A DNA stretch of 281 nucleotides. It comes from Escherichia coli (GTDB lineage: Bacteria; Pseudomonadota; Gammaproteobacteria; Enterobacterales; Enterobacteriaceae). The first letter of the stretch is position 1. The number at the start of each line of letters is the position of its first letter. The stretch lies in assembly GCF_003334405.1 (NCBI RefSeq), contig NZ_QOWM01000071.1; one strand, written 5' to 3'. The notes under the pieces are model-generated. The model did no database searches, had not been told where the DNA came from, and saw only the letters and a list, made by a program, of their open reading frames with translations. A program made the position numbers and the translations under genes. Below, piece by piece: positions 1 to 281 of the stretch.

Positions 1-75
1 GGTCGTTAGCTCAGTTGGTAGAGCAGTTGACTTTTAATCAATTGGTCGCAGGTTCGAATCCTGCACGACCCACCA
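1..75 (+). tRNA. lysT: tRNA-Lys (anticodon UUU), 5'-partial (tRNA position 1 lies just outside the window), genomically encoded CCA at 73-75
   Basis: Sequence matches the E. coli tRNA-Lys gene as I recall it. Cloverleaf verified by hand: acceptor 1-6 pairs with 65-70; D-stem 9-12 GCTC with 21-24 GAGC; anticodon stem 26-30 with 38-42; anticodon loop 31-37 CTTTTAA with anticodon TTT at 33-35; T-stem 48-52 GCAGG with 60-64 CCTGC; T-loop TTCGAAT; discriminator A72; CCA 73-75. E. coli has several identical tRNA-Lys genes; lysT is chosen because a 135-bp spacer to a downstream tRNA-Val fits my recollection of the lysT-valT junction. Not verified by search. Confidence 0.96.
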
Positions 76-114
76 ATCGCTAAGGTGGAAGCGGTAGTAA
101 AACGTGAAGGATAA

Positions 115-130
115 CGTTGCATGAGCAACG
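115..130 (+). other. Predicted RNA hairpin in the spacer transcript: 6-bp perfect stem CGTTGC/GCAACG with 4-nt loop ATGA
   Basis: Inverted repeat read directly from the sequence: 115-120 CGTTGC pairs with 125-130 GCAACG, loop 121-124. The only ATG in the spacer (121-123) sits in the loop. Folding in vivo is not established. Confidence 0.5.
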
Positions 131-141
131 GCCCGAAGGGC
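131..141 (+). other. Predicted short GC hairpin: GCCC-GAA-GGGC (4-bp stem, GAA triloop), directly abutting the 115-130 hairpin
   Basis: 131-134 GCCC is complementary to 138-141 GGGC. The stem is short and the loop tight, so stability is uncertain. No U-tract follows, so it is not an intrinsic terminator. Confidence 0.35.
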
Positions 142-157
142 GAGACGAAGTCGAGTC

Positions 158-175
158 ATCCTGCACGACCCACCA
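158..175 (+). repeat. Perfect 18-nt direct repeat of the tRNA-Lys 3' terminus (copy of 58-75: ATCCTGCACGACCCACCA), offset exactly 100 bp
   Basis: Direct comparison: 58-75 and 158-175 are identical. Identity stops at 57/157 (A vs C) and at 76/176 (A vs C). The copy covers the last 2 nt of the T-loop, the T-stem 3' strand, the acceptor 3' strand, the discriminator and CCA. No complementary 5' acceptor or T-stem strand lies nearby, so it is a fragment and not a folded tRNA. Confidence 0.9.
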
Positions 176-190
176 CTAACATAGTTAGTT

Positions 191-210
191 GTAGTATCCA
201 GCGTAGTATC
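191..210 (+). repeat. Two copies of GTAGTATC (191-198 and 203-210) separated by CAGC; the second copy ends at the base immediately 5' of tRNA-Val
   Basis: Exact 8-nt direct repeat read from the sequence. A third GTAGTA hexamer occurs at 94-99, and TAGT also occurs at 182-185 and 186-189. This is an A/U-rich 5' leader of the downstream tRNA. Confidence 0.6.
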
Positions 211-281
211 GGGTGATTAGCTCAGCTGGGAGAGCACCTCCCTTACAAGGAGGGGGTCGGCGGTTCGATCCCGTCATCACC
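211..281 (+). tRNA. valT: tRNA-Val (anticodon UAC), 3'-partial (ends at tRNA position 71; last acceptor base, discriminator and CCA are outside the window)
   Basis: Sequence matches the E. coli tRNA-Val(UAC) gene as I recall it. Cloverleaf verified: acceptor 5' strand 211-217 GGGTGAT with its partner ATCACC at 276-281; D-stem 220-223 GCTC with 232-235 GAGC; anticodon stem 237-241 CCTCC with 249-253 GGAGG; anticodon loop CTTACAA with anticodon TAC at 244-246; T-stem 259-263 GGCGG with 271-275 CCGTC (one G-U pair); T-loop TTCGATC. Paralog assignment (valT rather than valZ or the valU-operon copies) rests only on context and spacer length. Confidence 0.95.

Follow-up and report, generated by a model that had tools for sequence, protein, structure and literature searches.

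The closest described counterpart of the sequence analyzed here is the RtT RNA (RF00391; rttR) of the Escherichia coli tyrT-tyrV operon, whose function is stated as unknown in one relevant preprint. An RtT-type repeat of this tRNA operon also contains tpr (b1229), a short ORF annotated as a 29-aa "protamine-like protein" with the sequence MRSFDQGSTRAPARERCRRQRPEGRSAQR. The second point of reference is the lysT operon itself, which ranks among the tRNA operons with the highest transcription and is expressed as a single transcript of about 1,100 nt that RNase P cleaves from the 3' end, while RNase E can cut the long spacers as a back-up to RNase P (PMC4176162). In that study, by Agrawal, Mohanty and Kushner 2014, probes to the 135-nt lysT-valT spacer were used and only precursors were reported; the term "RtT" occurs 0 times in it, and neither an RtT-like fold nor an ORF in the spacer is discussed there.

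The window, by which we mean the whole stretch of 281 nt that was analyzed, is the lysT–valT junction and shows 100% identity to E. coli K-12. In MG1655, it begins at the second base of lysT (tRNA-Lys) and stops two bases before the end of valT (tRNA-Val), and window position 121 is position 780675 of NC_000913.3. The 135 nt between the two tRNA genes (window 76-210), which are the spacer probed by Agrawal and colleagues, are composed of a 100-nt RtT-like element (76-175) and the 35-nt leader of valT. An earlier note on this DNA had recorded a 31-codon ORF opening in the spacer at ATG 121, with the judgment that it was probably spurious. According to our analysis, this ORF is very probably a chance frame in the non-coding, structured RtT-like spacer of the lysT tRNA operon. 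The coordinates of all the features are compiled in Table 1.

The individual observations on which that note was based are all present in the sequence. The ORF listing gives MSNGPKGETKSSHPARPTTNIVSCSIQRSIG as the 31-aa translation from ATG 121 to TGA 214-216, with SSHPARPTTNIVSCSIQR as the tryptic peptide that its product would yield. The Shine-Dalgarno-like AAGGA is located at 107-111, leaving a gap of 9 nt, and the ATG makes up all but the last base of the ATGA loop of a hairpin. Downstream, the frame crosses an identical 18-nt copy of the tRNA-Lys 3' end, includes the rare codons CGA, ATA, and AGT (the latter three times), and stops within tRNA-Val. The ORF is not longer than chance gives: seven ORFs of at least 20 aa are found in the window, among them two longer ones on the opposite strand (40 and 41 aa), and a complete ATG ORF of at least 31 aa occurs in 50% of dinucleotide-preserving shuffles (n = 5,000). 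No CDS is annotated between lysT and valT in the curated NC_000913.3 (MG1655) or in PGAP records. The peptide was checked by exact-sequence look-up together with comparison at the DNA level, and the exact 31-aa sequence was not found among about 15 billion collected predicted proteins, whereas Tpr, our control, is present there with nine cluster members.

Table 1. Features of the lysT–valT window, with window coordinates and the evidence for each one.
Feature	Position	Strand	Evidence
tRNA-Lys(UUU) gene lysT, first base missing at the window edge, 3' end ...ATCCTGCACGACCCACCA	1-75	+	Rfam tRNA 71.1 bits; ARAGORN; K-12 annotation tRNA-Lys / lysT
Direct repeat copy 1, the true tRNA-Lys 3' end, ATCCTGCACGACCCACCA	58-75	+	Repeat search, 100% identity, spacing 100
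RtT-like structured spacer element, 100 nt, one of five lysT-operon copies	76-175	+	RF00391 58.8 bits vs gathering score 45
P1 5' strand CGTG-A-AGGAT, pairs with 158-167 (ATCCT-G-CACG); contains AAGGA 107-111	103-112	+	RNAalifold; 98.4% paired, 28 sequences
Hairpin P2: CGTTGC/GCAACG (115-120 with 125-130), loop ATGA 121-124	115-130	+	100% paired; 3 of 6 pairs compensatory
TTG-started 20-codon ORF, MHEQRPEGRDEVESSCTTHH, tpr-homologous frame; also taken as non-coding	117-179	+	ORF listing, frame tabulation, similar profiling counts
31-codon ORF, peptide MSNGPKGETKSSHPARPTTNIVSCSIQRSIG; very probably a chance ORF and no gene	121-216	+	ORF listing, cross-species and strain comparison, protein look-up, shuffles
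Hairpin P3: GCCC-GAA-GGGC (131-134 with 138-141); conserved RtT core, also in the tyrT RtT repeats	131-141	+	Alignment
Hairpin P4: GAC-GAA-GTC (144-146 with 150-152)	144-152	+	2 of 3 pairs compensatory
Direct repeat copy 2, pseudo 3' end closing the RtT-like element; 158-167 is the P1 3' strand	158-175	+	Repeat search; structure
valT 5' leader, 35 nt; small hairpin CTAAC-ATA-GTTAG at 176-188 and conserved GTATCCAGCGTAGTATC at 194-210	176-210	+	Repeat search; cross-species alignments
tRNA-Val(UAC) gene valT, cut at the window 3' edge; holds the ORF stop 214-216	211-281	+	ARAGORN; Rfam 56.9 bits; annotation

Three lines of evidence support assigning the RtT-like spacer element to the RtT family. 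Its score lies above the curated gathering score of RF00391 (Table 1); its architecture is that of the family, with the element placed behind one of the tRNA genes of a tRNA operon and ending in a copy of the 3' end of that gene, including the CCA, as is also seen at tyrT; and it has a conserved secondary structure with covariation. There are five RF00391 matches in the K-12 operon, located after lysT, lysW, lysY, and lysZ, and after the terminator 3' of lysQ. The four copies other than the one in our window score 46.7-60 bits, and the fifth, behind the lysQ terminator, carries the label "RtT sRNA" from the NCBI pipeline.

The RF00391 match at lysT (window 7-175) aligns tRNA-Lys to the model's 5' third and passes over 44 nt of spacer sequence, suggesting that elements of the RtT type represent partial, degenerate duplications of a tRNA. 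Because this match overlaps tRNA-Lys, pipelines that discard tRNA-overlapping hits label only the fifth copy. Downstream of lysQ, the fifth copy is flanked by a 54-nt exact direct repeat (locus L001, 3581-3634 and 3737-3790) that consists of the tRNA-Lys 3' end and a Rho-independent terminator; since the repeat is found on both sides, the operon has a pair of identical terminators at a spacing of 156 nt, and an RtT element lies between the two.

For the structural comparison, 47 loci were retrieved from one-genome-per-species bacterial assemblies with a pattern consisting of the tRNA-Lys 3' end located 25-55 nt before tRNA-Val. These loci contributed 25 further elements as well as 27 Lys-to-Val spacers without the element, and the structure alignment comprised 28 distinct sequences, including three K-12 paralogs. 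The four-helix structure has 22 pairs, and 99.0% of its 609 cells are paired, versus 27-45% when the partners are slid by 1-3 columns. Compensatory double changes are found at five pairs, a number reached by 0 of 500 shuffles. RNAalifold independently recovers 21 of the 22 pairs, the missing one being G106-C164, and the fold of the spacer is 2.8 sd better than that of shuffled sequences. P1 is formed by 103-106 and 108-112 with 158-162 and 164-167. The columns of the P2 loop are the most variable of the alignment, with GTC, GTA, ATT, TTC, GAA, and others, and P4 takes the forms GGC-GAA-GCC, GGC-AAA-GCC, GGT-AAA-ACT, or the shorter GC-GAA-GC in other copies.

As a separate observation, the two P4 forms GAC-GAA-GTC and GC-GAA-GC (the GCGAAGC mini-hairpin motif) differ by one whole base pair, and both coexist in the K-12 operon, where the form shorter by 2 nt is found in paralogs (L001 2935-2941 and 3239-3245).

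The accessibility of the AAGGA and the AUG was read from the fold of the spacer alone and from the comparative structure, both of which are predictions; in the spacer-alone fold, bases 108-111 have an unpaired probability of 0.00-0.21. A fold of the whole window was discarded for this purpose since the MFE fold of 1-281 lacks the tRNA cloverleaves. The AAGGA is conserved because it is paired with the ATCCT of the copied tRNA end, and the RtT-like element explains both the apparent Shine-Dalgarno sequence and the hairpin. The earlier note had recorded both and had not recognized the element that accounts for them.

The comparison between species shows no conservation of the reading frame. The codon homologous to ATG 121 is ATG in none of the 25 related elements; it is GTC in seven and GTA in four of them, ATT, TTC, GAA, and G-T in two each, and other triplets in the rest. 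A TAG is found at codon 6 in 15 of the 25, because the P3 loop is usually GTA instead of GAA. Frame-shifting indels of one or two bases occur in the loops (P2 loops have 3 or 4 nt, as do P3 loops), and P4 varies in length among GCGAAGC, GACGAAGTC, and GGCTTCGGCC. From AGGA to CCA, the element measures 66-69 nt, and the leader that follows it is between about 26 and 55 nt long. In the K-12 paralogs, the loop reads GTC, GCC, and GTT, and the in-frame TAG is present in two of them. When the overlapping frames that start at GTG 104, TTG 117, and ATG 121 are tabulated over the 25 elements, each one is truncated early in some of them, and the 121 frame is open in the fewest. The start codon is not retained in orthologues, the frame is not kept open by indels in multiples of three, and the substitutions do not follow a pattern of purifying selection: the variation is concentrated in the loops of the RNA, and the changes in its stems are compensatory.

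Within E. coli, we searched 5,426 complete genomes with 43-mers that seed only across the loop. Of these, 846 carry the ATG allele (837 with an exact match), and both natural isolates and laboratory strains are among the carriers; ATC is present in 2,167 and GTC in about 601. About 1,400 genomes (~26%) match only downstream of the element, which means that the 100-nt unit is missing. Inspection of sampled strains confirmed ATC in RM9131, ATCC 8739, an O111:H8 strain, L3Cip3, and BL21(DE3), and GTC in ETEC1748 and CB6837; ECONIH4 combines ATC with a frame-breaking +1 indel. In K-15KW01 (L058) and an O145:H28 strain (L059), lysT is directly followed by CTAACATAGTTAG..., which is the window minus exactly 76-175. 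Since the ATG is found only in a minority of the genomes and the element is missing in many, the start codon is a minority allele and the element is dispensable. The view that the ORF is probably spurious and should not be called as a CDS is therefore borne out, with the start codon missing in 25 of 25 elements from other species and in ~84% of the E. coli genomes; the frame-breaking changes that the earlier note had proposed to look for in otherwise conserved orthologous spacers were found as the codon-6 TAG and the loop indels.

The 100-nt unit is present or absent among both strains and species, and its boundaries lie exactly on the 18-nt direct repeat. Judged from the sequences, this pattern of gain and loss is as expected from recombination between the true and the copied tRNA-Lys 3' ends. 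BL21 is without the copy between lysW and valZ (L060 505-707), where the spacer is 51 nt long, so that the copy number of the element varies within E. coli.

Ribosome-profiling data obtained with retapamulin and Onc112 were re-analyzed by Fesenko et al. In their Table S4, the ORF is listed as NC_000913.3_ORF.38031 (780674-780767), with a retapamulin TIS count of 34 and an RPF count of 28, and an Onc112 TIS count of 22 and an RPF count of 30 in MG1655; it has a cluster size of 315, dN of 0.021, dS of 0, and belongs to the class "Intergenic", that is, without predicted coding potential (PMC11188072). The lack of an initiation peak at 121, which the earlier note had named as evidence against translation, thus does not hold literally, with 34 + 22 reads listed; however, the counts are similar at the TTG and larger in a strain with the ATC allele. 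The ORF that starts at the TTG 4 nt upstream has practically the same counts in MG1655 (37 and 22), and in BL21 there are 56 reads for the TTG ORF and 79 for a GTG ORF at the position homologous to window 104, according to the same table (PMC11188072). The BL21 allele was checked here and is ATC, so these counts were obtained without an ATG. The paralogous lysZ-lysQ element, with GTT in its loop, also has 21 reads in MG1655 and 88 in BL21 (PMC11188072, Table S4). Taken together, the counts at the TTG, in BL21, and at the lysZ-lysQ copy argue that the weak initiation reads follow the element and not the ATG, and such reads could come either from ribosomes that bind incidentally or from pieces of an abundant RNA with a tight fold. 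Some genuine small ORFs have comparable counts in the same table (hisL, 21 and 13; ecnA, 8; PMC11188072), and the counts of our ORF being in the range of some of them, a certain degree of ribosome binding is possible. In the part of the Stringer 2021 tables considered, there is no entry at 78067x-78069x, which constitutes a weak negative.

How these reads arose can be explained in several ways. The first is that they are nuclease-resistant fragments of an abundant folded RNA, either the pre-tRNA spacer or an RtT-like RNA, that co-purifies with ribosomes, a reading to which we assign about the same probability as to its opposite. It is favored by the compact fold of the element, by the high transcription of the operon (PMC4176162), and by the spread of the counts over start codons 4-17 nt apart and over paralogs, whichever the start codon. 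The mapping procedure is also relevant here: in PMC11188072, reads were mapped uniquely and tRNA reads were discarded, and since the copies are near-identical outside the loop, the countable reads are limited to those spanning the loop. The RNA-fragment explanation is compatible with the chance-ORF explanation and refines it.

A second possibility is that the ORF is a very young, de novo microprotein gene, in which a K-12-like loop change to AUG behind a usable AAGGA would give rise to the 31-aa peptide at a low level. The AAGGA-9 nt-ATG geometry, TIS and RPF counts above zero in both of the independent drug-arrest data sets (as re-analyzed in PMC11188072), and the occurrence of the ATG allele in natural isolates as well as laboratory strains agree with such a gene, but we find it highly improbable, given that these counts are practically matched at the TTG, exceeded in BL21 with its ATC allele, and accompanied by counts at a lysZ-lysQ copy that has no ATG. 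Moreover, the Shine-Dalgarno-like sequence and the AUG sit in conserved helices and a loop, the dN/dS ratio is undefined with a dS of 0 (PMC11188072), the ORF uses rare codons and stops inside a tRNA gene, the whole element is missing from about 26% of E. coli genomes, and the peptide was never called among the about 15 billion proteins. We would be equally surprised by a proto-gene created in K-12-like E. coli through a single loop substitution (ATC/GTC to ATG) and translated from some of the lysT precursor molecules or of the RtT-like RNA after its excision.

Hardly any credence can be given to a third alternative, in which the translated frame is the tpr-like TTG ORF (LHEQRPEGRDEVESSCTTHH) as a short homologue of the C-terminal part of Tpr, because although its frame is homologous and shares QRPEGR with Tpr, its TTG lies in an invariant stem and so is widely kept, 19 of the 25 related elements have the frame open, and TIS counts of 37 and 22 in MG1655 and 56 in BL21 are listed in Table S4, this conservation is explained by RNA structure, the TTG being part of the P2 stem, the frame is truncated in 6 of the 25 elements by one-nt loop deletions or by loop changes that give an early in-frame stop (loci named L008, L010, L015, L028, L035, L042, and the L048 region), the same table gives dN of 0.049, dS of 0, and the class "Intergenic" (PMC11188072), and the TTG is a weak start just 5 nt after the AAGGA. 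Tpr itself is not among the translated small proteins in the part of Table S4 covered, an absence that carries no information since the tyrT repeats are not uniquely mappable.

We thus return to the chance frame as the preferred explanation, and the way in which it may have arisen can be outlined as follows. The closing helix (103-112 with 158-167) encloses three short hairpins. The AAGGA is the conserved 5' strand of P1, paired to the copied tRNA 3' end, and the ATG is one variant of a freely varying P2 loop that is found in some lineages only, with GTC or ATC elsewhere. One recent base change in the loop opens the frame, which by accident stays open up to the TGA in tRNA-Val. By analogy with the RtT of the tyrT operon, the element would probably be removed either as a processing by-product or as a small stable RNA, and any binding of ribosomes to it would be incidental. 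On the other side, if the helices open, the AAGGA, the 9-nt spacing, and the AUG together formally make up a good site for initiation.

Some observations on the surroundings of the element deserve mention in their own right. In the leader of valT, the 17 nt just 5' of tRNA-Val (window 194-210, GTATCCAGCGTAGTATC) are nearly invariant in Escherichia, Citrobacter, Salmonella, Klebsiella, Kluyvera, Enterobacter, and others, while the remaining leader is variable. The same GTATCCAGCGTAGTATC also precedes valZ, and its conservation is unusually strong for a tRNA 5' leader. The small hairpin at 176-188, right after the (pseudo) CCA end, is present in many species, with or without the RtT-like element, and has a compensatory variant, CTGAC...GTCAG, in L025; shorter valT leaders (CTTAAAGCAGTATCC...) are without it. 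This hairpin may have a role in 3' trimming or in the recognition of the leader by RNase P. A scan for promoters and terminators returned no promoter-like site in the scanned sequence, and its sole terminator-like match was the P2 hairpin on the minus strand, which we took as a by-product of the hairpin.

An ORF of 18 aa, MHNTRPEVALFLVVSCES, is listed 5' of the window in Table S4 of PMC11188072 (L001 2335-2391, which is NC_000913.3 780388-780442). It starts in the region of the cpoB stop codon and extends into hairpin-forming sequence downstream of cpoB. The same table assigns it to the class "Entero67K" (predicted coding potential), with RET TIS counts of 6 in MG1655 and 267 in BL21.

As a clean negative, ORF 121-216 indicates that an arrangement of Shine-Dalgarno sequence, spacer, ATG, and ORF can arise wholly from constraints on RNA structure, with a helix strand mimicking the Shine-Dalgarno sequence and a loop variant mimicking the ATG. 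It also indicates that weak initiation-profiling counts in the spacers of tRNA operons should not be taken as a claim of translation without an allele control, for which BL21, with its ATC, is the natural case. Translation specific to the ATG, if true, would represent a datable and still-segregating birth of an ORF on a tRNA precursor, polymorphic within the species and of moderate interest for de novo gene origin; nothing here favors it.

With respect to known systems, ORF 121-216 is itself one of the non-conserved "Intergenic" smORFs of PMC11188072, with low TIS counts and no signature of purifying selection, and the authors of that study state that for the majority of these ORFs the signal may stem from translation that is spurious or occurs at a very low level. 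It differs from the others in that it is located in a tRNA precursor, whereas ordinary "Intergenic" smORFs are in mRNA, and this location makes structured-RNA fragments a more serious alternative origin of its reads than they would be for an ordinary intergenic ORF. Like tpr, it is a short ORF inside an RtT-type repeat of a tRNA operon. The earlier note had cited tpr as a precedent, but the comparison does not extend to the ATG frame: the frame homologous to tpr, with the shared ...QRPEGR..., is the TTG frame at 117-179, one base off from the 121 frame. The start positions of tpr and ORF 121-216 differ, their peptides are without similarity, and ORF 121-216 is thus a homologue of Tpr neither in frame nor in peptide; tpr is annotated and present in protein collections, and ORF 121-216 is in neither.

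The lysT element and the RtT of tyrT have in common the core GCAACG-G/A-CCCGAAGGGCGA...ATCCT...CCACCA; both are located directly 3' of a tRNA gene and end in a copy of the upstream tRNA 3' end that includes CCACCA, and both are repeated within their own operon. The lysT element is shorter (100 nt vs the 178-nt tyrT repeats), shows no relationship to the tyrT repeat in its 5' part, and is found between tRNA genes, whereas the RtT of tyrT follows the last tRNA gene. The closing helix is built on the 3' end of tRNA-Lys in one case and on that of tRNA-Tyr in the other, where the equivalent of the P1 strand is GGGGAAGGAT opposite ATCCTTCCCC of tRNA-Tyr. The region belongs to a type of non-coding element that is already known, and the finding is an ordinary one.
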